NCBI GenBank assembly: GCA_008632985.1
Contig: QPGO01000023.1
Coordinates: forward strand, 493,681-557,680
DNA from: Psammoneis japonica
Taxonomy: Eukaryota
Direction: 5' to 3'
DNA length: 64,000 bases
Positions 12,341-64,000 of the stretch are shown piece after piece. Position numbers and translations under genes: made by a program. Positions within the stretch are counted from its first letter, which is position 1; every line of letters starts with the position of its first letter. The notes below the pieces were generated by a model that worked only from the letters and a program-made list of their open reading frames with translations, did no database searches and was not told the DNA's origin.

Positions 12341-13146
12341 GCCCCATGCACTCACACAAGTTTGCTGCAAGAAGTGCTGGCACAAGACAGAAGGTGTTGC
12401 ACAAGAGAACTGCCAGAGAAGTGGACAGATTGCTCATGGGAACAACAAAAGCTTTGGCTCCTTTTCTTCTGTTTCCAGGGGCTTTCTGCTTTGGGCTTTT
12501 CTTGCTCCTCTCAGAAGAGGCTGTCACGACCCCAGCGCAATCTGCGCGGCTTCTGCCAACCAGCAAGGAAGAAGCTCGCAGATGAAGCATGGAACTCTTT
12601 GCTTTTTGTTGACCATGCTTGAGGAGGAGGTGCACCTGCAGGAGACAGATCAAACTTGCTGTGAGTTTGAGCAGTTGCCCAAACAACGTGCAAGAGCAGG
12701 CGAGCAAGTGCTGGAGCAATGGCCGAGAATGAGGAGAGACAAGACCAAGAGCTGACCTGGCAACCAAGAGACATCTAGAAATGTGAGGGTTGCGTGCTTT
12801 TTGCAGGCCACTGTTTCAACAACAGTGGGTGTGATGGGCAAAACCAAGCCACAAGCCTTGATGGTTTGAGCGCCGCGCAGCAATGGCACACAACATGGCA
12901 ATGAGAGCGAGACGCGGAACCAGAAGGGCGGTTGTGTTCACGTTGAAGCTGTGCCGACGCGACGCGCACCTGCAACATTGAACATATGGATAGTCTACTT
13001 ACTGTACAGGAGGGCCCTGCCTGCCTACCGAGCAGCGAACGAGCGATTAGTACACAACACACAACACAATTACAACGACGAACACCAACATCATCGCTTT
13101 TCGCCCGTTCTTCTCTGTTTGGCCCTCTTCCGAATATGCATTGTCC

Positions 13147-14675
13147 ATGATGAAAGCGCACATCATACCGAACCTTTCCCTTTCGTTATTAATGACTTTG
13201 ATCCACGTTGGCACTACGACAGCATATCAAGCGACTAGTGCTAACAACAAGTGCACGTGCGACGACAGCAAGTGCCGCAGCCCCGGCTTTTCTTCAACGA
13301 CTCGAACCGACTGTTGGGCTTCAATCCGGGGTTCCATAATATGGAAACCACCCTTGTGTATAGACGACTATGAAGTGAAAGACCTTTCAAGCGTGGCCTC
13401 CTTCTACGATGCCCCGTCAAACATCACGTACGGATGGTATACATGTTGTCCTCCAGCACACAGCGAACCTCTTCCCCAGGAAGAATGTACAGACCAAGAA
13501 TATACCAGTCCCAATGGCCGAGGGGGCACGGATTGCTGGGCAGATGCCCCCCATGAACCCATGACGTGTGGAGGTGGCGAGTACCGCTTTCCCCGACACA
13601 CCACCGCTATGTTCCGGCACTACTCTCGTTGGTATTATAATTATGTGTGCTGCAAGACAGACAGTGGAACTCCGCCACTCCGGAGGCAGCTCCACACAGG
13701 AGAGGCAATGAGGGTGTTTCTCGGATGCCTGGCCTTATGTTTCACTCTTGTTCTCATCTTTGCTATCCTATGCTCTCGCAAAGCGCGGAGAAACCCGTTC
13801 AATCTCTACCTTGTAACCTTGACAATTCCAGATGCCAGCCAGTCTGCATCAGCCGTTGCATTAGGATCAGGGGCCATCAGCGGAAACTTAATATCACCAA
13901 GTGCTATGATATTCATTAAACACTTCTACAGCACAGCAAATGTTTGGCTGAATGCTGTCGTGGCTTTTCAAGTATACAGGATTCTCCGTGAGACAAAGAA
14001 TGCGCGACGAGTTGCCCCACCGTCCATCAGGCGGGTGTTGACGGAAACAGCAATTGTCTATTCCTTTGCAGTCGCTGTAGGTGTTGGTTCCGTTTTCATC
14101 TATCGTCTGCAGTTTCGCGAAGACTTTCAAAAGATTCTCGTGGCTCTGTGGTTTGTGATTGCTCTTATCCCCTTTCTTTACGTGGGGTACATCTGCGTAC
14201 GTATTTGGATTGGCAACTTACTCTCAATTTCTCGACGGACAAGAGTAATGGCACTCTATTTTTTGAGAATCATCCTTGTATATTACCTCTTCTTCCTTCC
14301 TAGTGCAATTGTGCAAGTCGTCGAAGCAGGAAATGTTGATTGGGACGGGCTACCTCTGCATTACATACATTGGTACGTGGCTTGTGAAACATGATCATGC
14401 ATAATGCACCAAATATTGATATTGTCAGACATTTCATCCCCCACATTTATTTCAGGTGCATATCTTGTTTACAGCCAATGGCGTCAGTGTCAATGGCTCT
14501 AACGAAACCCGAGGTGCTCGTTGCGACGAAGAAATTGCTACTGTGCCGCTGTATGGACGGCCAAAGCAATGCGGATGAGGATGCTCCGAGCTCTGCTATT
14601 TCAATGTTCTATCGATCCGACTCGTCAGAGCCGCTGACGGGATCAGTGAGGAGGCTTTCCACTATACTTGTTTAG
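13147..14675 (+). CDS. Multi-pass (7TM, GPCR-like) membrane protein, copy 2; intron 14373-14455; C-terminal tail cut short by TAG at 14673-14675
   Basis: Close paralogue of 3581-5296 with an uninterrupted exon 1 and the same intron position; TAG where copy 1 has TGG. Confidence 0.8.
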
Positions 14676-15155
14676 GGGGAGTTATATCGAAAGAACTCCT
14701 CCTCACGTGTTGTAGACCAAGGCATTGATGAACGGGAGGCCGTAGACAGAAAAGACGCATCTGCTGGCAGTAGCCAGCAAGAAGAAGAAGAAGAAGCCCC
14801 ATGCTTTGAACTTGCTTCCGAAGAGTCGTTTCAGGAGAACTCAATGGATATCCAGGATCACGCAATTGCTGATAGTAGCAGGCACGGAAAGCAAGTGTCT
14901 CCTCCTCCCTCACGCCAAGAACCACCCGCATAAGATCTTGACTCCCGGTATATTCTGTTGGCACATCTACTTCATTGACAAAAATTGTTTCGTCTGGCAT
15001 AGGTAGTTCATTGAAATGACGAAAAAATGTGGAGGAACCGCTTAAAACGCACAATGTTTCTCTAATACCGCTGCAAAGCGCTGAGTGGCACACAAGATCA
15101 GTGTTAAAATAGAACAGATTACTTAGCAATAAGAAATGCAATACATATTATTTAA

Positions 15156-38665: not shown

Positions 38666-40206
38666 GATTCGACATCAACAAGGCTTCGCGCAACACTCGC
38701 AACAACCAAGACTCGCTCGCAAAATCTCGCTCCCACTTTTTCACACGTTGCAGCTGATGTGGTGTTGTTCATTCGTCTCACTCGTTTTCTCATCGTGGAA
38801 CCTTCTGATGACACAGGGTGTCTTTCAGGCATGTGCATCGGTCTGATTGCCCCCCCTCTTTGGGCAAGAATGGGGTGTGTGGTTTGCTTCTTGAAGACAC
38901 CAGACCAGCCACAAGGAGCTTGCAGTGGAGAGCTGGCAAGCAAAGCACTGGGCTGCGCCACAAGGCACTGGCTGATGGGACAGCATTGGGCAAGCACAAC
39001 CACAAGCATTTTCCTGAGGGCACTTTGCACCACATGTGACAAAGCCAGAAACATGGACTGAAAAACACAGACAGAGCCAGGTTTTGCTCAACTGGCCACC
39101 CAGAATTCAAGCAGGGAGGGTGCAGCCGGAATGAAGAAGGCTGCAGGTCAATTTGAGGTCCCTCATTCTTCCCACATGCCGAAATCTTGGTCCCAGTGGG
39201 AACTTGCTTTGCATGTTTGTCAACAGCCTGCTGCAGAAGCCACGGCTGCACTGGAAATCCACAAAGGTGGCGGTGCGTGATGGGGTGGATCTCGCAAATT
39301 CTCTCAAGATTTTGTGATGCATGAGGCCAAAATTTGGGCGCAGCATCCACAGATGCTTTGGGAGAGATGCTGTGAATTTGTCAAGGCAGGCACTTCTGAA
39401 AGCATGGGTGGGGAAGGCCAGTGCTTGCTGCCAGCGATCTTTGTGAAAATCTTTTGAAGAGGATGACACTGCGTCTTCTCGATTGGAAACTTCAGAGAAT
39501 TGTTTGAACACAGTGGGGCCAAACCCGCCAAAGTGTGCATTGAATTTTGGAGAACAAAGAAGGTGCAGATCCGCAGCAGTGGCCACAAAGCTGGCAGGGC
39601 AAGGCTTGGAAAACAGGCTGCCCAAAATGATGGGCTGGCAGCAAAACACTCCTCACAAAAGATGCCACACAACTCCACAGTTCTCCAGCGTGCTGTGGGA
39701 GCTTTGCTGTCAAGCATGTAAAACCACAGCACCTCAAGTCACAGACAAGCTGCTTTGCAGGCAGAAGCCCAGCCAAGGGCCACAAGTTGACAGCCCTGCA
39801 ACATCTTCCCTTTTTCTCCTTTTTCCTTCTTTTCCTCTCTCTCTTCTCCTTTTTCTCCTTTTCAGTTTATTCTTCTGGGCCGCCTCCGGCGGCCACCTCT
39901 TTCATTCTTCCCACATGCCGAAATCTCCATGCAAAGGCAAATTTTTTGGGCTAGTTTGGGGGACGTCTTCGGAAGCGAGACTGTCGAAGAAAGTTACGTA
40001 GAATTTGTACTAAAACAGTCTGTCAATCAGTGCGATTGGGGTATTTGGGATCGCTGGACAGATCCTACGTGTTTTTTTGTGCGTACAAATTGTACTGGGA
40101 AAACCCCCAAACGCACTGGCGATCAGACCGCCTTCGTCGATCTCACTTCCAAAGACGCCCCCAAGTTGGTGACCGTTTGAATTTAACGGCGAGCGAAGCG
40201 AGCCTC

Positions 40207-43200
40207 AACGCCCAAAAGTAACCCGGATGTTAAATCTTTGGTTTGTTGAACGCACCGCGACATCATTGCTGCGGCACAGCAGTTGGCTACAATGGCAGCT
40301 TGGGTGCAAGTTACATTACAAAAACATTACAAACTGAACAATAAAAAATGTGATATGGGCATGATCAGCAAGTTTTGTTGCGAGCAACAGCGAGCCACAA
40401 TGGAGTTGTTGCAGTGCGCGCAAAATCTCTCTGGCTAGAGAGAGGAGTCGTGCGCTCGGCGAGTTGCACTAAAGCTCGTTGGAAGTTGTTGCAAACATTG
40501 CTTCTTTGGGAATGCAATCAACTGCCTGTCCTGGCCATTCAATTTTGTCACACACTTTGCCCTGTTGTATCCTCCTGGACACTGACTTGGTGCTGGGCAC
40601 CCCAGAACCTTGCAGGATTTGCGTCGCCGCTTGCTTTGATGATTCACTCGATTCACTGACATCCTCGGCACCTCTGGATGAGGCACATGTGGTTGGTACA
40701 TTGGGGGATGACAACACTGTTGTGGAAGTGCAGGTGGCACTTGTGGCAGAAAGGCAACCGGCTGTGGGAGGATGTGACCTGCGGGAGGAGGGGGTGGAAT
40801 CATTGCAAGCGGAGGACATCCTGCTGGCTGCAACAGTGGCATGGTGTTGACTGATTCCTCGGCAGCATGTGCAGGCAAGCTTTCTTCAGTCATGCTGTCT
40901 TCTTGTCTTGTGCCACTCACTGGCTTTGGAGTTGTCACTGAGCCGTCGGCCATCTCTTCTGGAACATGCTCCAAAGCATCATCAACTGCCACCTTGGTGT
41001 TGGCTTCTTGCAGTGCTTCCTGCTGCACTTGATTCTTCTGCCATTTCTTGCAGTGCTTGGAAATGTGCTCTGGGTGCTTTTTGCAAATGTTGTTCTCACC
41101 AAGAGCAAATTTGTTCCATTTCTCAGCGATGCACTCGAATGTGGAGGCGGAGGACATCGATCGATTGTTTCGAAGCACCTCTTGAATTAAGCGACAAAAC
41201 AATTTCTTTTCCTCTCTAGTGCGGATCGGTGTGTGTGGAACTTTGGATCCCTGGCAAAGGGCAAGGCATCGCAATGAAGCTGTCAGATTGCTCACGGGTT
41301 CCAACCCAGTTGCACCTTGGTTCTCGTGTGCCTCAGAGAGCGGAACGACTCCGTGTGGTGATTTGGAAACAATGTGGTCCGAGGCACGACCCCAGTGTTT
41401 CCATTTCACTTCTCCAAACAAATCCTCGTGTGTTTCATTTATGATGTCAAGTGCCAAACTGTCACAGTGTCCAACTTGCGGAAAGTCTGGTCGATTTCGT
41501 TCGCTAGCCCGCCAGTTGCAGTGATGACGGAGCACGGCAAGGAGGTTGTCACTGTGTCGTGGACCCGCGTGTGTGTGACCGAAGGACTTGGTTAGCTTTT
41601 GGTGCAATGATTCAACAATGCTTGTACCCCTGAAGCAACAATGCAATGGCAAGCCATCCTTGTCAGTCGTGTGTTGTCCTTTTGCGTCGGTCATCCTTGC
41701 GTGGAAACCAACTGCTGGCGGATCCGAGAATTCACCACGCTTGATCGCTTCTAAGACGAGATCTGCCCTTTTTCGTGCTGTTTCATTGAAGAGCAACTTT
41801 CCCGTTTTTGTGTCAACTTTGTCCCCAAAGAAATCAAAAACGGCTTTCACTCGCTCGTGCAACACATGGGGGGACGGAATGTGTCGCTTGACTCTTTTGG
41901 CGACATGTCCAAATCGACATCGCAAGCAGCTCTCCCAGTCACCTCCCTTTTGAGCTAGAACACGTTTCACTCTTGCGACATCAATGGCATCCATTGTGAA
42001 GAATGCACCACGTAGTGCTCAAAAATGTGCCGCTTTAAAGTCATGGTCCATGGGAACCTTGACCCGGTCCATCCCGTGAAATGCGTCCCCAAGAACCCGG
42101 GTGATCAATTGATGAAGTGCCCAGTCTTCACCCAACTCATGAAGGCTGTCATCACCAAGCACATGATTCTCGTCCCTCATCTTTGTTGATCTCTCTTTAG
42201 CATGTCTGTCGGCATTGTTGACAAGCTTGGCAATTGCAACAGACAGTTCATCTACAATGTCGCTCTGCCTTTGTGTGCAGGGCTCGTTTTCCTCCTCGTC
42301 CCCGTCCAAATCCTCGTCACCCAATGCAAGTGGCATTGGTGCCATGTTTTCTGCACACTCATCTTTGCTGTCATGTGTTTCAAGATTTTTCAGCTCCTCG
42401 TCAAGTCTCTCTGTTTCATTCGGTTGCAGTGTCAAATCTTTGCTCTCATCGGTTTCATCATTGTCGCGGTTCAACTCATCAGTGTCGTCACGTTGCATCG
42501 CTTCCTCTTTTTCTTCGTCCTGAACAGAGTTGCCGATGTCATCGTCCGCCCCCTCTCCCACTTCAACAGCTGGCGAATGGTCACTCTCCTCTTCCACACC
42601 CGCGGCTGGCATGCCACAGTTTGCATCACCCATTTCTTGTTCTTCGCCATTCCAATTCACTGCTGTGGGCTCGGATGACTGTCTCAATCGGCAATTTGCT
42701 TCCACAACTTCAAGTGGACCGCTGGCCAACAAAGCAAGGTCGCCAAACGATCACATGTCACACATGTCTCGAAGCTCTCCATGCTCCATTCTCCCGCATT
42801 TGCAACGTTGCCCTTTGTTTGTCATGGGAAAGTGGACTGGAGCTTGAGCTCTGTGTGTCTTCAGAACTCGGACAAGAAATCTTTTTGGAGCAAGTCTCAC
42901 ACCATGTGGTGCATCCCCGTCTTGTTGCACCACCACACCTGATGCAATTGCATTTGTGTCCTTTCTTCCAGAGGGCATTGTGTCAACCACCATCCCTGCC
43001 TCGATTTCGTGTTGTTTGAGTCTCAAAGCAAGGTTTGGGAATTGACGGCAGTGGTGATAAAGTCGCAAGCCGGCTTCCCCGTCATTGGCGCAGCACTTCA
43101 GGGCCTTTTCGGTCAGCTCATTACGCCCATCAAACACATGCCCAACTTGGATCTCCTTTTCTTTTGGCATGTGGCAGTTCAACGCCTTCTTCGCAAGCTC

Positions 43201-45380
43201 TGACAATTTGGTTTCCCCACGTCTTCTTGCAGCAAGGCCACGGTCAACCACCATCGTGCCAACATCAATGACATTTTTAGGTCAGACGAGACTTGGGGTA
43301 GGATGCTCGTCAATGAGTTTTGTGAAATCTCCATTCACCCAGCGTCCCGTAAATGCAACATCATCGCGCTTGAAGAGCATGTTCAGCTTCGTGAGAAAAA
43401 GTCAGTTGCTTTGCATCCGCCCAATGTGAACAACTAAAATGTCATTCATCACATCTGATGCAAGGATGACAACACTAGTTTTCCCGTGGAGCCGGCCTCC
43501 GTCATGTGCTGGATTCTCGAGATCGAATGAAATAACCTTGTTTTCATCATCACTCTCGTTGTCAAGTGCCTCTGAGAGAACAGTGAGTGCCGCTGTGGCT
43601 TCCTCCTGTGTTTCCAAGCATGTGATGCCCCCACGAAGCGGCAAGGGAGTCAGTCCTTCCGGGACATCTTCAGTGTCGTTAACTCCAATCTTCAACCCAT
43701 TGAAACAGTCCTCCAAAAACACTTTGTCTCTGGGAGGGTTGTCGGAGAAAGCAAACGACGGATCTAGACCATGTGAATGCAGGAGCACTAAAATTGGCTG
43801 AAGCTGTCGATGGTTGTCGCTCAGCTCAAAATGCTGCATCACTGTTTTGCCGCATTCGTTTGCACCAGATTCCAGCACCTCGAACATCTTCTCGCCGCCC
43901 CAACGCATCATCCATTTTGGGAGCTTGAACGATGCATCTAAACTTAAGACAAAAGATGTTGCAAGCCTCTTGATGCACTCTGCATCAAGCATCCGTCTGG
44001 ACTGCTCCACAACCACACAGAACATGTGCACGAGCCACGCTGAACAAGGGACTGCTCCACCCAGTTCCTCTGAGAAGTGCTCGGGACAACGTTGTATTTC
44101 GGATGGGTCTTGGCAAAAGCTGGTGCACCCAAGAGCCATCTGTTTGTCTCCCTGCCGTTGTCGAGCAAAGGAGCCCCACTGCATTTCCTTGCTCTGCCAA
44201 GCCTCGCAGTGATTCCGCTTTATTGTTTCGGCTTTAGCTGCAGGACCAATGCCCTTGACGGCGTCTTTAATGATTGTTTTCATCAGGTTCTTATCAATTC
44301 CAGAGGTGTGAGACAGATGACAAGGAAAGCATTCAAACACATGGGGGTGTTCAAGACGAAGCTGCTCCAACACAGCGTCATTGGTCAACTGCCACGTGAA
44401 TTGTTTTCGATCCTTTTTCGCGACACCCATTTCCGCCTGAAGACCATTTTCTCGTTGGCACGGCTTGCACAAAAATTTCTCCGGTGCTTCAAGAACATAA
44501 TTTTCATGCTCACCACAGACAAGGCGACTTGGGTTGCTTTTGCCACAGGCCATCATTCCTTTGTCGCATCCGCAGCCACCGCATTTTGGAGTGAAGTCCT
44601 CCCCTGGCATTCCACGGAGCATCCATCTAAACTTTTTGAGGCGATGGAATTTCTTCCAGCTGTCTCGAATGTCAATTGGATGATGAACAAGGGGGAACTT
44701 TGGAATGTCCCAGAAATCACCTTCTTTCACTGCAGCCAAGCTTTTCTTTGATTCGATGTTCAACAAGCATTCTTTCACCAGACCCGACCGTCTTTTCATG
44801 CTTTGCTTGGCGTTCACCTGATTGTCGAAAATGTCTCTCTGGTTTGAAGCCTCAGACATCCATGTTGCTTCGACAAGATTCATTTGTTGCTGCTCTTCTG
44901 GTGGCTCATGCTGAGGTGGTTGTGCGGCAACAGGTGCCGGTGGTCGGTGGTTCTGCTGCTGCTGGTGGTGCTGGAGGCACTGGTGGCGTGTCTTGATGAT
45001 TCGTTGCTGACTCACGTCCAAAGTGAGAAAGGATGGCTCCTCTTTGGGATGGACGACCATGAGTCATGGCGGTGCGAGGCCGTCCAGCACCTTGCCTGGC
45101 GCCACCGCTGCTGCCACGTTTGCCGGCCATGGTGGAGAGTGCGGCCGCAATCGGCACATTGTCTCAGTGCGTGTTTCATTGGCCTTTTCTCTTCTGCAGT
45201 TGGATGCAACAGACACACAAAGCATGGATGCAATGATGCCACTTTTCTAGAGATTGGCCATCGACAAAAGAGAAGAAATTTGTCATTGCGATTTTTCTAG
45301 AGCTCTAGAAAAATAGCAGCATCGCATTATGGTACAGGTCATCCCGAGGTTACCCTAAGTAACATCCGTTTGGGAGGGTT
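40207..45380 (-). mobile_element. ~5.2-kb DDE DNA transposon with imperfect terminal inverted motifs
   Basis: Left cccaaaagtaacccggatgtta versus the reverse complement of the right end cccaaacggatgttacttagggtaacc; encloses one large minus-strand transposase relic. No clean TSD found. Confidence 0.65.
40435..45130 (-). pseudogene. Large DDE transposase relic (DUF6729-like Cys N-terminus, DxxH motif) with an inserted DEDDy 3'-5' exonuclease domain
   Basis: GGARQGAGRPR N-terminus; CGGCG...C..C...FPCHLSH.SGIDK; LSLDASFK, FSDNP, VLGDAFHGMDR, RGTSIVESLH; exonuclease VISFDLE...VNGD...LKCCAND. Broken by TGA stops and frameshifts. Confidence 0.75.
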
Positions 45381-50023: not shown

Positions 50024-50422
50024 TGTTCTGGTTTTTGTTTTAGCTCGTGCAAAAAGAATTTATGAGCGGTTGACGAAATCTTCGGGTGCGTGGACGAATG
50101 GAACGATCTGGTCGCTAAATTTGATGAGGTAGGAAAGCACGACTCGGTCGTCGCGAATTTGGAGCCGTCAATTTCTACAGAGCTTTGTACTTTACCACTC
50201 ATTCACGAAATAACTTCAATGTAGCACTTAGGAGACTGATGATCTTTCATATTTTTTTCTCCAACCCGAACAATGTCATTATCATCCAAAATTTTGAAAA
50301 ATTGAAATCGGAAATTCGACTGAAGACTCGGATTGACAGAACCACGCACGTCGTCGCGGTCTACGGGGTCTGCGGAGGCGGCGCGCTGTCACAAATCACT
50401 GATGTTAAAGCAGCGGCATCAC

Positions 50423-51255
50423 TGTCAAGATCGTCGACACCTTATTTCTATGCTGGGAAGGCGGCAACATCACGAAGATGGGGGCGGTTGACAAAGTGTG
50501 CGGGTCGAGATGTTGTGGAAATTCTGCTGAGCCGAAAGCTCTCACTCTGTTGCACGACCGATTGTCGCAGCTCTGTTCTGGAATCATCGAGACATTCGAG
50601 ACTGACTGAGCACTCAAAGTGCAAGATGTGGAGGTCGCAACATCAAAGCAATCACATCTCATGTGTTGCATTTGAAGTGTGTTGTTCTCAGTGTGCTCTC
50701 CCGCACTCGTGTCAGCAGCAGCTTTCTGCTGTTTTCGATGGGTTCCAGTCCCAGGTGGGACTCCATGTGACATTGGGCCTGCAGAATTCTACGTGCGAGC
50801 TCTGTGGCATTGACAGTTTGCCCGGGCACGTTCTTCAGACATTGAAGAATGCACCCAGTGTGTTTTCATTCTCACAAATGTTGAAAATGGAAAGCCTTTG
50901 GCTTTGCAAACAGGGAGCATGAAAAAATTTTGGAGAATGTGACATGCAGAAATGTGCACGCGTGACATGTGACGCGATCCAAAAAACCATTGATGTCACA
51001 GTGCAGCAGTGCGAGGTCCCACCCAGAGCTGCAACGTTTCTTTTGCGGAGCGCTTTCCAGACGAGACCAGAATGTGTGACGTGGGGATGCTGTCAAGGTG
51101 GATGGTTGCCAAATTGTGAGTTGACAGAGAACCACATGGCGCGACACTGGGTCAAGGCATCGATGAGCGGCACCAGCCATGTGGGGTCAATGCATCACTT
51201 TCCCGTCTTGCCCCAGTCTGTCAATGGACAGACCACATGGTGTGCTGTCGTCACA
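50423..51255 (-). repeat. 3' LTR (833 bp, TG...CA)
   Basis: Minus strand begins TGTGACGACA and ends TCTTGACA; 51081-51255 is directly repeated at 61248-61418. Confidence 0.75.
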
Positions 51256-51266
51256 TCCCTCCTTCC
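51256..51266 (-). other. Polypurine tract GGAAGGAGGGA
   Basis: Immediately precedes the TG of the 3' LTR on the minus strand. Confidence 0.75.
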
Positions 51267-52444
51267 AACAAGAGAGCCTCGCTTGGATGAAAAAGAGTGC
51301 AGACATCCTGTGGACTGTGTGAGAGGGGGTGTGATGGTCGCAGATGGCCCTCCTCCATGGAATCACACCCACGATTGGATCCATGACTGACTTGCTTTTT
51401 TGGAGATCAAGGAGCGCAGAGAGGTGGACGCAGAACCCGCCTTGCTCAGTGTGGCTTGGAACATGTCCCAGAACCCGGGTGAGGTCAGAGTTCTGTGACA
51501 ACATCCTTCATGTGTTGCTGCACTGTTGTCACGTGCTCAGTTCTGTGTGGCTGTCTGGTGTTGGAATCAAACCGGTGCATCCGTTGTGGCACCGTGCATG
51601 TGATTTTGGTGCACCTGCCTTGTCGCACCCAAGTCGGCAACCCTGGAGGGGACGGTCACTGGGACAGCCAATTTTGCCAGTGTTGCAACCCTTTTTCTTG
51701 GTGGCAAGGACCTGTGGCAACATGACAGTGGGTGCAAAGGCTTGCGGTGTGACGCATGAGCAGCAACAAATGAAAGCAGGTGGATGATTTGAACACACCA
51801 TGACTTCAACTCTGCTTGGCTTGAAAGTTGAGTGTTGCACTGGATGATGCACTAGAGAGCCAAGCCACTCTGATGGCACTCATCACATGTCTGACACCTT
51901 GAGGTTTAGCAGAGGGGCTTCTGTCTCCAGTTGTGCCCAACACGTCTCAGCAATGTGATGGGATTTTTTCGTTGACTTGTTGTTCTTTCTGTGCTTGACT
52001 TGAATCACTGAGAAGTCAAAAGGCCCTGCCACAAAATGTTCCGTGAGAGGGAACACAAGGGAGGCCACATGATGGATGATTTCTCTGATGCAATGACCCG
52101 CACTGCCTTCTTTGGGTTTGCCAGCACATGCATTGGAGGTTGGTTGTCGGCTCTCTGTTTCATCATGTTGGGCCAAAATCGACCATCCACTGAGGACTTT
52201 GTGTGAGCATCTTTCTTGAAAGTCTTGGTGCCACCATCTCATCATGCAAATGCCGTGTGTCACAGCATGGTGCAGATTGGATTTGGCCCAATCAACCTGG
52301 GCCATTTGAAGCACTGGAAGTTGATCAGTTTCTGGGTGGCAGGCGATGAAAAACATCTTGGTCAATGAACATGCTGTTGACTTGCAGAGTTTTCTGAAGA
52401 ACGTGGCAGTCTTGGGGTGAACCGTGCAGGCAATTGGGGGGGGG

Positions 52445-52499
52445 NNNNNNNNNNNNNNNNNNNNNNNNNNNNNNNNNNNNNNNNNNNNNNNNNNNNNNN
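52445..52499. other. Assembly gap (55 N)
   Basis: Run of N following a G homopolymer. Confidence 1.
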
Positions 52500-55400
52500 T
52501 CATCCACATCTTGGTTTGCTGCTTGCCATTCTTGCTCGTTGGTTCCTGCTGAGGTTGTGTTTTTGTTGTCCTCCAAAACAGAAGAATCATCAGAGTTGGG
52601 CGCAGGTCATCGCTCCACATGCTTCACATTGGTTCCCATGCCCATTTGGCATCTGGTTCTGCCTGTTTGTGACTCCCTCTGGGCAAAAACCCTGGCCACA
52701 GTTCCAGTGGGGCCTCCGCAAAATCTGAATTCATGCAGAAAAATTGCCATTGTAGAGGGCAATGGAGGCATTCTGGCCGCATTTTCTTTTCTGAATTGGC
52801 CTGGTCTGCCCAATCTGTGGATGAATGGCAGCTTTTGGAGTTCACACAAAATGGGGGTCACTTGTTTGACAACTTGGCATGGTCCACGTGCACTTGGAAC
52901 AGCACCTTTTCCGAGATGCCGCAAGAGCAATCTGATTTCACTTGCTTTTGCACCACTGCTGTGTCTCCAGGAGCAAACTTGCATTGCTTGATCCCTTCGT
53001 TCCGGAGCTTGATGTGTCGGTGGTGCCATTCCTCATTGAGGACAGTCAATGGGGGCTGTTGTTTGAAGATCAAGGGGCAATTGACTCAAAGTCATCCAGT
53101 GTTTGTTCCGGCATGGACGCCGAGTCATGCATGGCTGGGCCACAATGTTGAGTGGAAAAGGAAACTCTCTGAAGATGGCCACCAACAACCATGGAAGGGC
53201 TGCAGTGTTGGTGGGCGATGCACTCCACATGCACAGAGCAAAGCACACTGCCTGCTTCTGTTGCACCATGGATGAGGTGTTGGCTGCATTGATGCACACC
53301 ACCTTGTTGAGGCAATGATGGAAGTGCTCATTGCACACTGCTCAGTGGTTCTCTCTTGAGACAGGAGGTGCCAGTGTTCTCAACATTTCTGTCAATTGAA
53401 CAAACACTCCCATGAACAACAAGTCAGCATCCACAATGATCAATCGTGGAGGGAGGCCAGCAATGATGAAAAAATTTTGCCGTTGTGACATGTGCCATGG
53501 CTTTGGCCAAGAGCACCTCCTGAAAAAATCTGCAAAAGCAAAGCTCATTGCACTGTCCAGACAGGTGAGGATTTTAGTGTCACCAAGAAAGGTTGATGGT
53601 GCTTCACCAGGCATCCAAAAGTCTAAAAACACTGCTGACCAGGGTTCGTTGCAGGTGAGCAAATGGCAAATGCAGTTGCATCTGTGCCTCATGTGAGGAA
53701 CAGTTTGCCAGATTACAGTGTGCGCAACCCACAACACCTTCATGCAGGTCACAGAGCACACAGCATTCGAGTGATGCTGCTGTGGCCTGCAAACAGAGAC
53801 ACATGACATGCAACAATGACAACCCAGTGCAGAGGTGTGGAGGAATGCCTCAGACCCAAAGTTGACATGCTCTTGTTGACTTAGATTGTTCAAAATAATG
53901 TGTCAGTCCATCTTCCACCTCCAGCTGGTTCTTGACCAGAGTGGCACAGTGTCCGTTGTCTGGGAACACATGGTGTGATGGCTTGGTGATGTCAGCAGCC
54001 CATCGAAGCATGATGGCTAAATCATGGTCACTGCAGTCGCCTCTGCCATTGCTCATTGGACGGGAGCGGGAGGGTGGACACCGAGTGGAATGGTGTGGTG
54101 GGACAAGCTGGGATTGGCGCCGCCAGTTTGTCCCTGAGTCAACCAGCACCATGCACTGTGATGGGCATCTGCACAAAATAAATTTTGAACCACATGTGCA
54201 ATTGCTGCCACAGCTGGTGTGGCCTGCAGCTTTTGAATTGGCACATGGTCGGGTGGCGCCGCCATTTTCTGAGAATCCAAACAATTGAACTGCCTCGTGC
54301 AACCGCCTCGTGCAACCACACCGGTCCACACTTCAACTCAGCAGTGTCCCACATTGCAAAGAGTGCTTGGTGGAGTTGTTGTTTGTCATGGGGATGTGTG
54401 ATGCCAGGTGCCACCAGGCTTGTTGAAAGGCAGCACAGGCATCCGTCGAGTGGCCTGGTGGCCAACAGGGATTTGACAAACTGTCTGACCTTTGCTGAAT
54501 GATGGTGCTCCACAGCCACTGACCGCACCACAGATGAAGGTTTCAACACTGACAGATGTGCAGGGTCCAAGTGCTCATTGTCTCTTGTGCATTCGTCCAG
54601 ACAGTTGCTCATGGGTGCCGGATCCATTGCAGCATGTTCTGGGCAAAATGTTTGCATGCTGTGCTTGGCACCAACACTGTCATGCAGTGGTCCACCATTT
54701 CAATGGCACCACCTTGCTTGGTGTTCAAGCGTTCGAACACCCGAACATGCCAAGAGATGCCGTTTGCAGGTGGCTCTTGTTGGATGCACCAAGTTGGGTT
54801 GGGTGTGCAACCGAGGGACAAACAAGACTGCAGCTTGAAAAAACAGCCAAGCATGCAAGACCTTGACGTGTTCCAGCATTTCAGAACACCATGTCTGCTC
54901 TTTCGGGTTTTGCAAGCAGGCCGTGGGTTCTAATTCTGCCCACAGGAAAACTGCAACAAACCAGTCCATGCATCTGACTGTGAGGGCAGAGTGAAGCACT
55001 GCCTCAAAAAATTGGGGGCAGGCCATCAACCAATTTCAGTTGTGAGCATGTCTTCAAACTCAGTTGCCAATCAATGAGCACTTGTGCTGCCAGTTCAATC
55101 AACGCTGCCACGAATGCCTCTTGCAACGGAACAGCCACAGGGCCCAAACACACAACGGTGCAAGATGGGACCATTGCCCATGCCAATTGAGAGCTGTGCT
55201 GCCAAGAGGGGTGACCACGAACCTGAATCATCGGGAATGTGGAAAATGCAAAAGAACAGGTGAGAAAGGGATCTTGTGCCAGGATGTGACCTGAAGGAGT
55301 CAGTCCCAGGGATGACCGTTTCTCTTCAAGTTCCTCACTCATGACCGGCTGAATTGTGTCTTTCTGGTCTTCAAACATTCCAGGCTTTTCTTGTGGCTCT

Positions 55401-57120
55401 TGTTTGTCTTGGAGGTGAAGACACCAATCAGAAGCACTTCTGTTGTGCCTTGCAAGCACATTGCATTCTGCAACCATGTTTTGCTGGGTTGGTGTTTGCA
55501 TGTGAGTGCGCAAAGCAAAAGCTCCTGAAGCCACTGTTGCACTTGGCTGTCAGGAGGATTCGCCATGGGGTCCATGAACTCTTGCATGCTGTTCACATTG
55601 GACAGCAGGGTGAGTTTGCATCCCACCAGACACTTTTGCCACTTGGAGAAGACCCGACGTGGAACGGATGCCACTCCCACAAAAGAATGACATTTCTTTT
55701 CAGCCGCGGTGGTGGCTCATGAAAGAAACTGGATGGGTCGAAGGCGGATTCCCCTTTGCTGCAAGTCAAAGAAACAAGGCCCCCCTTGGACTTCTGCCAT
55801 TTCTGTCTCATGTGCCAGCAGGTCATCTGGGTCTGCTTGACATGGTGCCACCACCATGGCTTCCTTTGACCAGTCCATCTTGACATAAAATCAACAGTTG
55901 CAATCGGGGTGTGCCAAAATCAGGTCGGATGCAATGTTTTGCAGGAGGTCCTTGAACAGTTTCTGATGTTCAGCACACCACTTTGTGTGGAACAATTTGT
56001 GTTCTTCAGACATGGGGACCGAACCTGGCTTGGGAGCTTTGCGCTGCAATCTCAGAAATGGTTGGATGCATGTTTCGACATTGAACATTCAGTTCTGACA
56101 AAAGCTGCAGACACCAATCAGGATTCGAAGGTCCGTCCACATTGCTGGGATTGGCAGATGTCTGAACACATCTGGCTTGGAGAGAGCTGGAGAGCTTCAA
56201 TGTGGGTGCACATCCACCCTGATGAACTCAACACAGGGACACAAGAACTTGCACCTCTCAAGCTTGGCAGTTGCCCAGTGAAAAACAAGGACTTCGTGTG
56301 CCACCCGGAAATGAAAGATCAGTGGGTCAACGTCTGCTGCCCAGAGGAGAACATCGTCAATGACCATTTTGTTGCCACATTTGTCTGGACATGGAATGCA
56401 TTTTATGATGACCCCCACACTTGTTTCATGAGGTTGGGATGGTGGTTTGCCATGCGCTTGTTCCATGCTTTGCTGAGCGTGAGTGTCATGGCCATGAAAA
56501 TTGCACGGGCATTGATGAACCCCACTGGCAGGACTGTCCAATGGCATTTGCCGGTTGGTGTGAAGAGTGCAGTTTTGGCTTGTGACACCTCATCCAGCAC
56601 CACCTGCCAACAGCTGCAGTCCAGGTCAAATGTGAGGAATGCCTTTGCTTGAGGAGGTGTGTCTTGGACAGCATCGTCGCACCTTGGGACCGGAAAAGCA
56701 AAAGGTTGGGTGACTTGGTTCAATTGCCTGTGCGACACACACAAATGCCAAATGCAGTTGCACCATGGGACATGCTCTTGGTGTGCCTTTGCTGCCAGGA
56801 CCAACACAAGAGCTCCCCACGGCTCTCGTTTTCCAGCTTGGTCAATCCATTGTGATCAAATGTGACGCGAGCTTGTCCATTGCCTGGGCTTCATGGGGGG
56901 CACATCTCGGAGGTTTGCATCATGCCGGGGTGACCGTGCTGGCATCAATGTGGTGCAAGAATCCTTGAACATGCTTTCTCAGGCCTTCCTCACAAAAGCA
57001 ATCACAGCATTGCTCAATGATTGTGGACACCTCATCCTTGTGTTGCTCTGGGCACTCATGCCAGTGGATGTTGCGATCGAACTCAGGTTGGTGAATCACA
57101 GGGTTGAGTTTTTTTTTGTC

Positions 57121-57238
57121 TGTTTGTGGAGGTGAAGGTGCCTTGGATTGGTGCAGCAATCTGCCGAATTCCTTAAAGTCCGTTTGTGGAGGCAAAGGTG
57201 CCTCAGATTGGTGCAGCAATCTGCCAAATTCCTCAAAG
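57121..57238. repeat. 60-bp tandem duplication inside pol
   Basis: 57121-57180 and 57181-57238 are near-identical. Confidence 0.95.
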
Positions 57239-60200
57239 ACAAGCTCCATGCCATCCAACTGATCGGGGCAGTTGCACAGGTCCATGCATTGGGATGGGAG
57301 CCTGGGGCACCACATTTTCTTAGCGACTTGCACTGCTCCATGTGAATTGGGGGATGGCTGGTTGGGGACTGCTGGGCCCTTGGGGAATGTGTGCATTGGC
57401 TGGTCTTGTGCTTGGGCACTGTCAGACGGAAGAGAAATGCAAGTTAAAGATGCAGGTTTAAATGCAGGGGATGGGTGCGCATCAGGTGCAGAAAAGCAGA
57501 AGATGCACATGTGTTGACTGCAGATTCCAACTTTTCCACTGGACCCTGGTCAACCAATCACTGCAGGTCAACTGGAAAGACACAAGGTTTGGCTTGTTCC
57601 CACAGTTGGGGTTGGAACAGAGGGAGAGCAGGTGAATGCAAAGGAGACACACATGGAGCCAGAGGGTCCAACGTCAGAACCGGCGAATCTGCTGAATGTC
57701 ATTCTTGGCTGTCCATCTGGTTGCAAGAATGCTTCTTGGCAGGCAGCTTCTGGTCTTGCGCCGACTCTTTTGCTGACTCATGTGTCGACCTGTGAGACCA
57801 AGACTGTGGTGACAGATGGGAGAAAAAGGTTGACACTGTCACTGACCTGAAATGCTGTGTGATGGGCTGGTTCAAAATGCAATGGCGGGGGTGGACGATG
57901 CACAACTGACACTTTTGCCGCAGCTGGTGTGTTGGCTGTGTTGGTGACCTCGTCAATCACATCTTGCAGTGCTTGGAACTTTTTGTTGCGAAACGACAAA
58001 GGTTGTGCCGGGCATCATGTCATGACAATCTTTGCTGGTGCGTGGGGCTGACCAACCAGTTTAGATGTGAACACTGCATTGAGGCCATCTGCTGTCATTT
58101 TGCAGGTTGCCTGCCAGTTTCCCAGCATTTTGCTGGTGAAAAAATTATGTGGGAATTGTGCACAATTTCAAAAAAGAGATGAGGTTGGATCAAAAAATGC
58201 AACAGAGATGCACAAAATGCGACACAACATGACAAGCAACAATGGCAACCATGTGGGGATGAAAACAACATCCACACCAGTGTCAGGCATGCTGTGGCAA
58301 CAATGCAAACATGACAAGCAAAGTGCAGCTGATGCAATGTTTGTCTTGCTGGTGTCCATCTGGTGGCTCTGATTGATCATTCAAGATGATGCCATTGTCG
58401 TCAACATCCCACATTGTTGCTGCGCGTAATTCACACAGAAAATTGCAAAAAAGCCATGTTGACAACGGCCCTGAAATCAACCACAAACTGCATCCAGGGT
58501 CAACATGGGCGCACATCTGCACTTGTCACTCACCACAAGACATGTCTGATGCATTTTGTTGCACAAAAATTAGTCCATGGCATCACCGGCAGCATGCCAT
58601 TGTCAGCATTGAATGCTGCACAAAAAGCACGGGGACGATGGAAATCAACTCTTCTGTCGCATTTGTCTGTCTGTCACCCATTTGTTTCGTAGAATCTACG
58701 AGAAAGTTCCCACACATTTTACACTCTGTCCATGCTTCATCTGACACCTGTTTGTTCCTGACAACCATTTGTTCTGCGCGCAGTGTGGCTCAGAAAAAAC
58801 GGGCAACACATGGGTGGCTGGTTGTCCGGGTCATCTTCGCAGTCATGAGCGGACTCCTGTTGTGGACTTTGTGGGGCTGGTGGCGGCTTTGTGCCGGGCA
58901 ACTGCAGACCAGCCTTCTGGCATTTGGGTTTCAGTGATGCCTGGAAACATGCCTTGTGAGTGGCCACCATCGTCAACAGAGACAAGACAGCGGACACCAG
59001 TTCTGCCACATGACTGGAGGGGAACCCTTGCACTTCCCACTTTAGCTGGGTGTCACCAGGGATGGAAGCACAAGCAGCCACCAGGGCAGCTGTGGCAATG
59101 GCAGAAGCAGGTTGAGCCTGCTGCTGACTTGGGGATTGATGTGGGTTGGACCACCCATGCTGGGTAACACCCCTTGTTGCCATGGACTTCTTCCTTGCCT
59201 CAACAAATGCCGTGTGTGCTTTTCCTGTGAGGACTTGTGCTTGTGGGTCCAAACAACATGGGTGCTGATTCCAAATGTGTTCAAACCAACGTTCATGATT
59301 TTGAGGGTGCCCTGCACAGAGCCAGCACTCCAACAGAGGATGTGCTGAACCTGTGGCATTTTGCAAAGAGATGTTTCAGCTGCGCTGAGACAGATGCCCT
59401 CAGTGCCGGTTGCACGGAGATGCGCCGGTGGTGTGTCTGCAGAAGCAGCAACAAACAAATTGGCTTCATCTTGCACAACATTGTGCCATGTTCCTGGCAT
59501 CCAGTCTGCCTGTTGGACTTGAGCCGGTGACTCTGAAGGTCCCAAACAGTCTGCATCAGATGGAAGAGCCTTGAACACCTTGGCTGGGCCTTGAGTCAGG
59601 GCCTGAGTGACGCGAGACGGGCCTGACACTCGATTTGTTGCAGCTGACGTTCAAATGAAGCAGCTGCTGCATGTGCAGTTCACAGTCACACATTGGCCTG
59701 AGCATTGGCTTCATTTGCTGGTGCTGCTGGCATGTGATGTGGTGGCTCTTGAGAGTTTGCTTGTTGGTGCATGTCAGCCTTGAGACCCACCCAAAAGACC
59801 TGCGCCAAATCAATGGGGCAGTGCTCGGTGAGGTCGCACAAGCTTGCCAAATTTGTGAATTTGATGTGACACTGTTCCACCAAGAGCTCAACACATCCAC
59901 CAGCTGACGGATGAATTGGGCTTGTTTCAAGTTTTGGATTGCCGTCACAGTGCACAATGAATCTCGGACTGAGTCGCCCAGAAAATTGGCCCACAACAAG
60001 AAATGTGTGAAGCAAAATTGGCACTCACAAAAGCAATGCACAAAGCTGTTCCAAAAGTGGCGGCTGTCCAAACTAACCAACAGAGCACCATTTGGGCTTC
60101 CCAACTGTCCCAGGGTTGGAAAAGCACCTCCCAAATAAATGCACAAAGCAGCCAGGAATGGAGCTGGGTTGAGAAGCACATTTGCAGCAAACACTGTGGG

Positions 60201-60803
60201 AAGCACCTCTCTGCTGTTGTTGATGTGGGCTGGGTCATTGATCATGACCTGTGGAATCGTGGCTGCCACATTGAACTGTTGAATGGGAATGCAACCTCAT
60301 CAAGAGTGTCAGCGTTGAGGTCAAGCACAGCCGCATGTGCGTTGACCATCAAATTGAACACACAGCAATGTAAAGTGTGGCAAACAACCATGGCCATGTT
60401 CACTGCTCCGGCCACCGGCACATTAAGATGCTCGCCAATGTTGTTACAGATGGCAGGATTGGTGTGCATGAAAGTGCCTGCCGGTGCCTCCGTTGCAACA
60501 ATCGGCCACTCAACTCCTGCCGAATTGTCATGCAGCCACTCCAGCGCCCCATTGGTGACCTCCTGAGGAAGATGTGTGCAATCAAAACGACTCAACAGCA
60601 TCTCCAATTTTGTCTGTGATGAAGCGACTGCATTGCTTGACATGCCAGAAAGAGCCTGTGGAAAGTGCCGCTCACATTGCTGGATGCTCAAGGTGGACAA
60701 CTTGTCAGGCTTTGCCGGAACTTGAAAAGTGCTGTCATTCCTGCGGGCATGCACCAAATCAAGTGCCAGGTCAGAAGGATGATTTGCCCCACTCATCCCT
60801 CGA

Positions 60804-61530
60804 GACGCGTTCCAGGTCCAGGTGGAACCTCGCATCACTGAACTGTGACATCGACAGTTTTTTGAATTGTGTCGCATGTTGCACATGCACATTTCTGTGT
60901 GATTTTGGCAGTGCAATTGCTGGGTGGTCCATTCAACAACTTTTAACATTTTTTCCTTCTGTGCCATTCTTGAATGTCTCAAGAATGGCGTGGGGCAGGT
61001 GGGTCATCCAAAACTCTGAGCAGGTGCAGGGACATGTGCACCACAAACTTGGTCATTCATTTTACATCAAAGATGAACACATCCATTGATCAGAGTACAA
61101 ACTGCAGAGCTTGCACGCAGAATTCTGTGGAGCAAATGTCACAAAAAGTCCCACCTGGGGCTGGAACGCGTCATGAACAGTGCCCACAGCTGTTGCAAAC
61201 CCAAAAGGAAGATCAAAGGGCAACCACCGGGCAGGATTCCATGCAATGTGGGGATGCTGTCAAGGTGGATGGTTGCCGAATTGTGAGTGGGTAGAGAACC
61301 ACATGGTGTGACACTGTGTCAAGGTGTCAATGAGTGGTGTCAGCCGTGCAGGGTCAGTGCATCACTTCCATCTCACCCCAGTCTGTCAATGGACAGACAA
61401 TGGTGTGATGTCGTCACAAGTTCCAAATGCTCATCCTTGTCGCAAGTGTCAAGATCGTCAACAGCGGAGGCAGAAACGGAGATGGAGCGGTTGACTGTGC
61501 ATGGCCAAAGGCAAATTCTGCTGAGCCGAA
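60804..61530 (-). repeat. Rearranged 5' LTR region
   Basis: 60821-60900 and 61103-61167 match 3' LTR segments in inverted orientation; 61248-61418 and 61447-61530 match in direct orientation. Confidence 0.75.
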
Positions 61531-63299
61531 GGCTTGTGCGCATTGCAATCTGCCTGTTGCAGTTGGAGCCAGGAATGTTGATGCACACTGCACTGTGCGC
61601 TGAACCTCAGGGGTTTGGGTTGCTTTTGGATTGAGGCTTGAGACCATCAACCATGATGCATCAGCAATGCAGCATGCCCCTCCAAAAGCAACACTGAACC
61701 CCAAATAACATCATCAACCATTGAAGCAAGAGAGAACAAGCACACTGATGGTGGCAGCCGTGCTGTCAGTCATGTCTGCGCCGATGCCAGACAACTGCAT
61801 CTTCTTCGGGCTGCTGCAGGGTTTGCCAAAGCATTGTGAATGATTTGAGGGTTGTTCAAAAAACCCCAAACACGACCGCCTGTGAGCATTGTGGTGGTGT
61901 CAGTTGGATTTCCATGCATCGGGGCAACCAGTTTTTCCACAGCTTTGGAAAGAACTGGGATGATCCCCACATCATGACAATGAAGCTGCGGAGGTGGCCA
62001 ATTTGATGGGATGACAATTCAACAGGACCCATCCAATGCCCATTGCCGACTGCATGGAGCAGTTTGGGCAACAGGGATTTGACTTCTTTTTTTGGTTCTT
62101 GTGCGATCTCATTGCATGGGCCGCCAAACAACATGACGTCAAATTCGAAACGCAACATTGGCAGGGAAAAAAGTCATGGCATCCTCACATCTGAATCTGT
62201 CTCACATCCACAACAGTTTGTCCTTTACTTCTTCTCCTCTTGATCAGTCACAGCCATGCCAGCAGCACAATGCGCTGTTGTCATCACATCTCTGAATGCT
62301 GACAAACAGTTCTGCTGGAGATTTGCCGCAGCTTTCAGCAACGATCAATGATGTTTTCCAATCTGACCGAGACTGCTCCCTCCATCCTCAAAACCGTCTC
62401 CTGCATCAATGACCGTGGCCTCTTCCTCTGATGCCATTGCAATGGCAATTCTTGCCATCTGCATGCCTGCCTCATGCCATCTCAATCCAGGCTTGCCCAT
62501 GACGGTTCCACTGGACCAGCCTGACCCAGTCAACCAGTCAAAGTTCCTGGAATGCTTCCAAGTCCTCTCTGGGCTTTGCCATTTTTCAGGCTGGTGCTCG
62601 TCCTTGGTCTGCAAATGTGAACGCCACCATCAGTTTTTTCATGCTCTCTGCAAAGACATGCTGTCACATGATGGTGCAATGCATGGTGCCAGCACACGAC
62701 AACAACAATGGCAAATCCACAGTGTTGTCAGAAAGGGCAGAAGTCCACAAAATGCTCTGAAAACTCAGCAACACCGCAGAAACAGTTTGTCATGATTGGT
62801 TTGTCTGTGCTGCTCTCTGAGAGAGGGATCTCGAATGGAATTTCGACAAGGCTGTCTTCACCAGCTCCAAGACAAAAGGCATCGTGCCCCACCATTGTGG
62901 ATGTTAAAAGGATGGACAGGTGACACGAACTCTTGAATGGAGTTTCGATGAAGGGTGCCATGCACCATCACCACCTGTCCTTATGAACCTCGTGACGCAG
63001 CAAGTGCTTTTGAACAACCAAAACACTGAAGAAAACCAACGCATCATGAAGAACAAAAGTCAAACCGCGGGGCAATGGAAAATCTACGTCAAGCGTCAGA
63101 TTTGCACCGACAAAATTCAAAGACATGTTGTTCATGGAAACATCAAAGCAGAGCATGGATTACAAAGTTGGACGGATGCCCCACGTGATGTGGGGAAACG
63201 CCAACTGCCATTCAATTGTGTGAGATCAATGTGAAGTGCGCAACAGTTCGCAATTCCATGGGTGAATTTTTCTTCAGAGATGTACAGCATGCATCTCAG

Positions 63300-64000
63300 G
63301 GATGTCATTGGCATTGTTTGAGAACAATGGGTTTGAGCATGATGGAAAAATGCAAAAGTGGAACGAGAAAAACATTCATGGTGGTGAATTCTGGATCGCG
63401 GCAGATGGCTGTTGAGCATGCTGGTCACTGACCAGGTCGGATCGTCAACAGGACGCAGACTGAAGATTTTGCCAACACAGCTGGGGCTCTCAAACGGACT
63501 TCCAACAACTGGCATCTTAGCCACCTTGCGTGCCTTGGGCGTCTTGAATTCTTCAACATCATCAAGGTTGGCGTGGGCGCTGACCAGTGGAGGGCTCTCG
63601 AAAGGTGACTCAAAGAATGGTTTCTCCGCCGTTTCCTCCGCCTCTTGCATCTTGTGGTCTTCGACACGGACAGAATCATTGATGTGTCGAGGGCCATTGA
63701 ACACCTCGCCTGCAGCGGGATCACGTGCACTCACCAAAGCACGACTGGACAGAGCATGATGAACGTCAGAGGCTGGACGAATGCAGTTGACGAAGACAGG
63801 AGTCTTAACTTCTTCCTCAGCCTCATGCATCTCGAACTCCTCGCCCGCAGCGGGATCGCACACTTTCCTCATGCCTGCATGGTTCACCATCTCCTGCGCT
63901 TCGAGCATCTTGCATTCTTCAACCTCTTCAAGGACGAAGTGGTTGGCGCATCGAGGGCTCTCGAACACCTCCCCCGCAGCGGGATCGCACACTTTCACCC
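63300..64000 (-). pseudogene. Hypermutated C-terminal repeat region of a second GcvT-like paralogue (continues beyond the window)
   Basis: KVCDPAAGEVFESP, FVNC and ESP repeats align to KVCDPATGEVFESP and FVNY at 48380-48680; TA nearly absent. Confidence 0.75.

Follow-up and report, generated by a model that had tools for sequence, protein, structure and literature searches.

The locus and its TA-poor blocks

The stretch of 64,000 nucleotides studied here (the window in the following) belongs to the diatom Psammoneis japonica and spans positions 493,681 to 557,680 of contig QPGO01000023.1 in assembly GCA_008632985.1. In this window, ordinary gene-bearing DNA alternates with five blocks in which the dinucleotide TA is nearly gone, CG is lowered and CA/TG stand in large excess. 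We concentrate in this paper on one of these blocks, which harbours a decayed gene that looks like the gene of a selfish element, and to which we refer as the element. The features are listed in Table 1, and the evidence stems from this one 64-kb window and from one sample.

As host reference we used the TA-normal stretches 2600-6800, 13000-38500 and 45300-50300, which comprise 34,703 bases. The observed/expected ratio (o/e) in these stretches is about 0.59 for TA (0.57-0.68 across stretches), 0.96 for CG and 1.16 for CA/TG. The four TA-poor blocks besides the element show ratios of 0.02-0.08 for TA, 0.30-0.51 for CG and about 1.64-1.88 for CA/TG, and the element block is the least advanced of the five (values in Table 1). 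Only TA, CG and CA/TG depart much from the host among the dinucleotides, AA, CA and GA being undepleted. In every block TG and CA occur in nearly the same number (the element has 472 and 443, respectively), which indicates that no lasting strand bias exists.

Table 1. Positions of the TA-poor blocks, the decayed gene and the three-copy family within the window
Feature	Position	Strand	Description
TA-depleted domain (main element)	40355..45297	.	TA o/e 0.13, CG 0.67, CA/TG 1.53
Decayed gene	40435..45063	-	1542 codons, 4 in-frame stops, all TGA
TA-poor block	1..2200	.	TA o/e 0.08, CG 0.51; YTAR = 8/12 TA
TA-poor block, nearly saturated	8950..12700	.	5 TA; TA o/e 0.02, CG 0.30; contains paralog C and an XPG_I open reading frame
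Short TA-poor block	38700..39750	.	1 TA, CG o/e 0.32; about 600 TA-normal bases before the element
Large TA-poor block	50400..64000	.	48 TA in 13.6 kb; CG o/e 0.34-0.49; YTAR 21, RTAY 2
Paralog A	3574..5450	+	TA-normal; 85.7% identical to B
Paralog B	13143..15039	+	TA-normal; distance to the TA-poor copy C about 800 bases
Paralog C	11170..12339	+	TA-poor copy, used for polarising; in block 8950-12700

The gene of the element and its family

The two longest open pieces of the decayed frame were used as queries to find relatives. Proteins of some 1500 amino acids in public assemblies can be aligned with the frame over its whole length; one of them, P0001, shows 44% identity across 1433 alignment columns. 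The family comprises 1278 representative proteins at E<=0.001, and the relatives have a DUF6729 domain (PF20499), followed by a 3'-5' exonuclease domain (PF01612) and a conserved C-terminal region. The only match of the family profile in the PDB is the Werner-syndrome (WRN) exonuclease domain (E=1e-15). The element itself has no Pfam match, which fits its decay. A reverse transcriptase domain was found neither in the element nor in the 13 relatives scanned, and the element has no convincing terminal inverted repeats. By its look the gene belongs to a selfish element, to which we assign no named transposon superfamily; a literature search for DUF6729 found no paper. In one family member of 3352 amino acids (P0035), PF01612, PF20499 and an OTU cysteine protease domain are each matched in three stretches; it is a fused array, or else its gene model was joined wrongly.

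Judged from the sequences of the relatives, TA poverty is not a trait of this family. Tyrosine makes up at least 1% of the residues in 151 of 152 family proteins (median 3.3%), and all four metagenomic family loci have a TA o/e of 0.61-0.72; with an identity of 33-37% these loci are too distant for polarising changes at the codon level and serve as a TA-normal control only.

Contexts of the surviving TA steps

Between positions 40400 and 45250 the element retains 37 TA in 4851 bases, where about 197 would be expected by scaling the host TA density, so that about four fifths of its TA steps are gone. An initial annotation, made from the letters of the stretch, had claimed that the remaining TAs lie mostly in the context YTAR (Y, pyrimidine; R, purine), which would imply 5'-TAY-3' as the target. 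The counts bear this out: 22 of the 37 are YTAR (CTAG 7, CTAA 6, TTAA 5, TTAG 4), while RTAR, YTAY and RTAY account for six, five and four, respectively. The six hexamers quoted in that annotation are all present (gctaga at 40436, actaaa at 40470, gttagc at 41593, tttaaa at 42036, tctaga at 43765 and 45248, cttaag at 43945). The 1408 TAs of the host stretches are distributed quite differently (RTAY 438, YTAY 390, RTAR 345, YTAR 235), and the YTAR share of 59% in the element stands against 17% in the host (odds ratio 7.3, Fisher p=1e-8). Compared with a flat expectation of 25% the excess is still significant (p=9e-6). Scaled by the host counts, the approximate survival in the element is 6.5% for RTAY, 9% for YTAY, 12% for RTAR and 67% for YTAR.

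The same bias recurs significantly in two of the four other blocks, namely 1-2200 (8/12, p=1.7e-4) and 50400-64000 (21/48, p=1.6e-5). The nearly saturated blocks have two YTAR among five TAs (8950-12700, not significant) and none in the single TA left (38700-39750). When all blocks are pooled, 53 of the 103 surviving TAs are YTAR and only six are RTAY. In addition, survivors are enriched for A at +2, mirrored by T at -2 (44% versus 27% in the host, p=7e-6). The YTAR excess is unlikely to result from back-mutation, because the abundant RCA and TGY words would yield new TAs in the contexts RTA and TAY, contrary to those that survive.

In order to describe the context by strand, we used a Poisson model with the host counts as exposure, in which the hazards of the two strands add up and each of them is set by the base that follows the adenine on the 3' side. 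It agrees with the counts of the ten reverse-complement classes (Pearson 9.2 on 6 df) and is far better than uniform survival (likelihood ratio 95.9, p=1e-20); the counting of NTAN tetramers in mutated versus host regions, which had been named beforehand as a check, thus finds survival far from uniform. Relative to a 3'-A, the survival factors per strand are 0.58 for G, 0.24 for C and 0.15 for T, giving the order of attack TAT >= TAC > TAG > TAA. An added interaction term for the palindrome (RTAY) does not improve the fit (p=0.78). The strands are thus mutated independently of each other, which would be expected if the agent reads a single strand but not if it recognises a four-base palindrome of the duplex.

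Direction of the changes

The element has no paralog within the window and appears to be single-copy, and for this reason the changes were polarised by means of its protein relatives and of another, three-copy family. Tyrosine codons are TAY, those of histidine CAY and those of cysteine TGY. The residue content of the element is 0.3% Tyr, 3.4% Cys and 4.8% His, whereas all 19 full-length relatives contain 2.1-3.5% Tyr. In a set of 284 conserved columns, defined by agreement in at least five of six close relatives, none of the ten conserved Tyr is kept (4 His, 4 Cys, 2 Phe), while other residues are kept in 69-100% of their columns, with the exception of Ile (2/6). A wider set of 32 Tyr columns of the relatives gives the same picture, the element having His in 14, Cys in 8, Phe in 3, Tyr in 2 and other residues in 5 of them. 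Because Tyr was replaced by His or Cys, the ancestral TA must have become CA or TG. Both of the retained Tyr codons read T-TAT. Two of the four in-frame TGA stops align with Arg of the relatives and fit a change from CGA to TGA, as brought about by CpG decay. A further Tyr-poor relative is P0021. At four of the five Tyr columns that it shares with the element it carries Cys and the element His, which indicates that the two genes were mutated independently.

The only paralog set in the window with which polarised pairs can be checked is the family A/B/C, which has no Pfam match. None of the 39 TAs common to A and B remains TA in copy C: 17 are TG, 13 CA, three CG and six something else. Likewise, the 43 CGs common to A and B are represented in C by 22 TG, 12 CA, one CG and eight others. 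The initial annotation had named GTAG to GCAG and CTAC to CTGC as the usual pairs, and these are found in two of three and three of four cases, respectively, the remaining ones having become GG. The exceptions that it allowed for also exist, since CTAT gave three CA and three TG.

Product direction had been named beforehand as a further check, with independence from the flanking base speaking against an enzymatic preference, and it turns out to depend on this base. A purine precedes 13 of the 14 His codons (T>C), although only 51% of the third codon positions of the frame are purines (binomial p=0.0013), and it still precedes 10 of 11 when the three columns are left out in which the closest relative also has His. 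Cys codons (A>G) are preceded by a purine in four of eight cases (His versus Cys, Fisher p=0.039); the base that follows the changed A is a pyrimidine in all of them. Among the paralog sites, RTAR became CA five times and TG never, while YTAY became TG seven times and CA four times (one-sided Fisher p=0.029).

Domain edges, CpG loss and copy number

The edges of the element are sharp to less than 100 bases, with dense TA reaching to 40354 on the left and setting in again at 45298 on the right. The depletion extends past the frame into the non-coding ends 40355-40434 and 45064-45297. Loss of CpG (CG to TG/CA) co-extends with the TA-poor domains and is probably due to decay of 5-methylcytosine. 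Because this decay affects the same domains, the target would be silenced, methylated chromatin; this suggests that the process is aimed at a chromatin state and not at sequence repetition.

Sequencing data were available as three runs of one sample. The element (40815-45257) is represented by one contig with 0 differences and a depth of 35, compared with 52-62 in neighbouring contigs, and allelic TA/TG variants are absent from this single contig. The element thus appears to be single-copy. Furthermore, paralogs A and B are TA-normal though they are 85.7% identical over 1.9 kb. An apparently single-copy element that is mutated, together with a pair of about 86% identity that is untouched, suggests that copy number is not the trigger.

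Other regions show a very different depth. The summed depth of the contigs of run X1 reaches about 3000 at 39335-40668 and 44,605 at 50674-51340, against 52-62 for single-copy neighbours, and both pile-ups therefore represent high-copy repeats. The part of the first at about 39750-40350 is TA-normal between two TA-poor blocks and is perhaps young. A contig of run X2 skips 110 bases with GT..AG ends at 46463-46574. This run is on record only as 'DNA?', but the joint suggests that it probably consists of transcripts and that an ankyrin-repeat gene with an intron lies here. Run X2 has no cover over the element and bears neither way on its expression.

Other features of the window

Open reading frames (ORFs) of at least 200 amino acids overlap on both strands in the TA-poor blocks, for example at 12132-12815, 42222-43019 and 58737-61003. 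These are probably spurious: two of the three stop codons, TAA and TAG, need TA, so that long ORFs pile up where TA is lost. A Pfam scan of the pieces of the element and of 17 ORFs from other low-TA stretches gave a single match, an XPG I-region nuclease domain (XPG_I, E=3.6e-8) in the ORF 9174-9899 on the minus strand inside block 8950-12700, which is possibly the remnant of another kind of mobile element. The large block 50400-64000 contains an assembly gap, a run of 55 N at 52445-52499.

A tandem array at 8195-8930, in which a 185-base unit is repeated 3.9 times, lies in a moderately TA-poor zone. At CTAG and CTAA sites the units differ from one another by TA>TG/CA, and singleton changes are too few to add weight. 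An open frame of 883 amino acids (35627-38278, minus strand) is TA-normal and adjoins block 38700-39750; it has no Pfam match and gives a recombinase-like impression only. Two further genes bear on the ancestry of the surrounding DNA. For the polyprenyl synthase gene at 22758-24329 the organism-named matches are all from diatoms (identities: Nitzschia sp. 68%, a Bacillariaceae metagenome-assembled genome 67%, Pseudo-nitzschia multistriata 66% and Seminavis robusta 65%). Among the listed relatives of the inosine-uridine nucleoside hydrolase gene at 16605-17621 (plus strand), many are on megabase-size, bacterial-looking contigs, the only eukaryote-named match being from the diatom Odontella (51%), and judging by these matches it could be an old gene transfer.

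Nature of the process

The depletion, the polarity of the changes, the per-strand context and the sharp limits of the domains are direct observations. At the level of the sequence they establish a targeted, per-strand and context-dependent change of TpA to TpG/CpA that acted on this DNA in place. The claim of the initial annotation that neutral drift is not at work is thereby supported, by the local TA o/e of 0.13 versus 0.59 in the host, by the direction from Tyr to His and Cys, and by the per-strand context. We lean towards the view that the element is an inactivated selfish gene, inserted in the nuclear genome of the diatom and mutated in place by such a process, with a DNA adenine deaminase as the agent. 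This enzyme would most likely act by converting adenine within DNA to inosine, and the process may be directed by the chromatin state.

According to this proposal, adenine would be converted to inosine, which pairs with C, so that A:T becomes G:C. Each strand would be attacked separately in a three-base context around the adenine, in which a 5'-T is obligatory and the 3' base is preferred in the order T >= C > G > A. RTAY could then be attacked from both strands and would vanish first, whereas YTAR would be a poor target on both and stay. The product would be set by the strand attacked, TAY giving TGY and RTA giving RCA, hence the replacement of Tyr by Cys or His. Copy C and the Tyr columns match this pattern, as their changes are nearly all A:T>G:C at TpA (30/39 to TG/CA and 22/32 to His/Cys, respectively). 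A change of TA to TG/CA never creates TAA or TAG and erases existing ones, and TGA arises in this way only from TAA, which already is a stop. Because no new TAA or TAG appear, the frame stays open (only four TGA in 1542 codons) while missense changes ruin the protein. For genome annotation this means that an open frame which lacks Tyr, is rich in Cys and His and lies in TA-poor DNA is a decayed gene in spite of its intact look.

An obligatory 5'-T is a hallmark of the TadA/ADAT family, and the substrate loop of bacterial TadA reads UACG, which matches TAC. The initial annotation had pointed to a deaminase of this type, with which the data agree in part. The 5'-T agrees with the signature, the loss being specific to TpA, and so does the good susceptibility of TAC. 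The 3' order T >= C > G > A as a whole does not agree with the contexts described for fungal mRNA editing (UAG and UAA) or for the amphioxus enzyme (GAA).

Several points weigh against an adenine deaminase of this kind, or limit the evidence for it. Fungal ADAT (Tad2-Tad3) is described as often editing mRNA at UAG and UAA (PMC11156358), which in our case are the contexts attacked least. With DNA as the substrate, amphioxus ADAT2 is reported to prefer GAA for adenine and TCG for cytosine (PMC10354150). A TC>TT trace, as it would be left by the cytosine side activity reported for TadA-like enzymes, is not seen in the TA-poor blocks, where TC/GA is barely shifted (from 1.13 to 0.98-1.10). The direction tests are based on small numbers (22 His/Cys codons and 16 paralog sites), with CTAT splitting evenly, three CA to three TG. 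The survival model takes the NTAN frequencies of the host as the ancestral state, a dependence which the test against a flat 25% eases for the most part but not completely. Finally, as far as the sequence pattern is concerned, chemistry directed at A and chemistry directed at T are identical.

This last point leads to the alternative that thymine is mutated instead of adenine. The T in 5'-RTA-3' could be modified, for example by TET/JBP-type oxidation to 5-hydroxymethyl- or 5-formyl-uracil, and mispair with G, resulting in T>C. Oxidised thymines do mispair with G, and TET/JBP genes travel with transposons in some eukaryotes. As RTA>RCA and TAY>TGY are one and the same change read from opposite strands, the context, paralog, Tyr-codon and model counts fit equally well. 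However, nothing in the window indicates such an enzyme, and the sole experimental precedent, the alga Bigelowiella natans (Mettrop et al., bioRxiv 10.64898/2026.01.13.699255), is read in the preprint as adenine deamination, which itself is a proposal. We therefore consider a thymine-directed agent unlikely.

Rather improbable, too, is that no dedicated enzyme exists and that TpA in compact methylated chromatin is simply prone to A:T>G:C errors of replication or repair, with neighbour effects due to stacking. The reach of the context to +2/-2 could reflect DNA structure such as A-tracts, and the co-localisation of the TA signature with CpG decay would also be expected. On the other hand, the loss is near-total in the heaviest block (TA o/e 0.02) and the edges are sharp, and the rate described in the B. 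natans preprint, about 1000-fold over background and on only in some lines, looks regulated.

Two further explanations are very improbable. If transcripts had been edited by an ADAR-like or ADAT-like enzyme, reverse transcribed and inserted as edited copies, the depletion would end where the element ends, as is observed. Against this stand the changes on both strands (14 His by T>C in the sense strand and 8 Cys by A>G, besides the near-equal TG and CA counts), the lack of a reverse transcriptase domain in the element and in the relatives scanned, and the fact that TAG, the triplet favoured by ADAR, is among the protected contexts; in B. natans, moreover, the mutations are reported to have arisen in resident DNA. 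Arrival of an already TA-poor element, or its recoding by selection against TA (e.g. in order to escape a TA-cutting nuclease), would also remove Tyr, both codons of which contain TA, but hardly accounts for replacement by the single-transition neighbours His and Cys (22/32) and not by the conservative Phe (3/32), for four in-frame stops, for depleted non-coding ends, for TA-normal relatives or for copy C of a host-like family, which met the same fate.

Taken further, an adenine deaminase directed by chromatin could serve as a genome defence in diatoms and perhaps in the wider stramenopile-alveolate-rhizarian group, marking silenced, CpG-methylated foreign DNA whatever its copy number, strand-wise at 5'-TAY-3', and inactivating it by missense changes without creating TAA or TAG. 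We put this forward as a tentative possibility, one which we would not yet call probable.

Comparison with known systems

The per-strand rule together with the direction set by the flanking base represents a concrete biochemical fingerprint, which argues against a double-strand enzyme reading a palindrome, against ADAR-type RNA editing and against recognition of repeats. Decay of CpG by deamination of 5-methylcytosine is known from methylated transposons and is seen here as CG to TG/CA (34/43 in copy C; CG o/e 0.30-0.67 in the blocks). It accounts for the CpG part only, as the loss of TpA is faster and follows a context rule of its own.

ADARs are an animal family acting on double-stranded RNA and prefer a 3' G. 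Their hyper-editing of animal repeat RNA resembles our case in the clustered A>G changes within selfish sequences and in the favoured 5' U. However, the preference for a 3' G is opposite to the context found here, and in the diatom a resident locus has been changed on both of its DNA strands. TadA and ADAT2-ADAT3 share the U/T 5' of the edited adenine, as described for fungal editing (PMC11156358), and at least one natural ADAT2, that of amphioxus, is reported to deaminate DNA (PMC10354150).

The repeat-induced point mutation (RIP) of ascomycete fungi likewise ruins selfish DNA in place by dinucleotide-specific transitions and leaves a strong dinucleotide skew. RIP converts CpA to TpA, so that TA rises and stop codons are made, and it requires duplicated sequence. 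The direction is opposite here, since TA falls (o/e 0.13), CA/TG go up (1.53) and no TAA or TAG can arise. Whereas RIP makes stop codons and needs duplication, inactivation here is by missense changes, the element is apparently single-copy, and the 86%-identical paralogs A and B are untouched. If our interpretation is true, a genome-defence deaminase would represent the mirror image of RIP, and its context signature could be used to identify the enzyme.

In the literature searched we found no report of TpA-poor transposons in diatoms and no other genome defence based on an adenine deaminase; the preprint of 2026 on Bigelowiella natans cited above was the only report of a targeted A:T>G:C hypermutation at TpA, and with it the basic phenomenon is already in print. 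According to this preprint (bioRxiv 10.64898/2026.01.13.699255), 231 mutations arose in two integrated viral regions of mutation-accumulation lines of this alga, 20 of them in a virophage region and 211 in a region derived from a nucleocytoplasmic large DNA virus (NCLDV). All 20 of the former and 210 of the latter were transitions from A to G or from T to C, without exception at TpA. The rate of these de novo changes is given as about 6e-7 per site per generation, and the authors propose an ADAT2-like deaminase. As in our window, TpA is changed to TpG/CpA in foreign DNA only, within an otherwise normal nuclear genome, and both cases share a long-term low TpA with high CpA and TpG, the targeting of a region that is single-copy (in our case apparently so) and adenine deamination as the proposed cause.

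There are also clear differences. B. natans is a chlorarachniophyte (Rhizaria) and the host here a diatom. The depletion in the diatom is deeper, with a TA o/e of 0.02-0.13 compared with a Rho of 0.45 reported for the NCLDV region, and a transposon-like gene is affected. It is accompanied by CpG loss and obeys a per-strand 3' rule; the main text of the preprint mentions neither a tri- or tetranucleotide context nor CpG. What the present case adds is that a diatom is affected, that a per-strand 3' rule governs the attack and the product direction, that Tyr replaced by His or Cys serves as a signature in proteins, that CpG decay is coupled to the loss of TA, and that the process is apparently independent of copy number. 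The same trace in a diatom, in a far more advanced state, implies that the process first seen in B. natans is not a curiosity of one alga.

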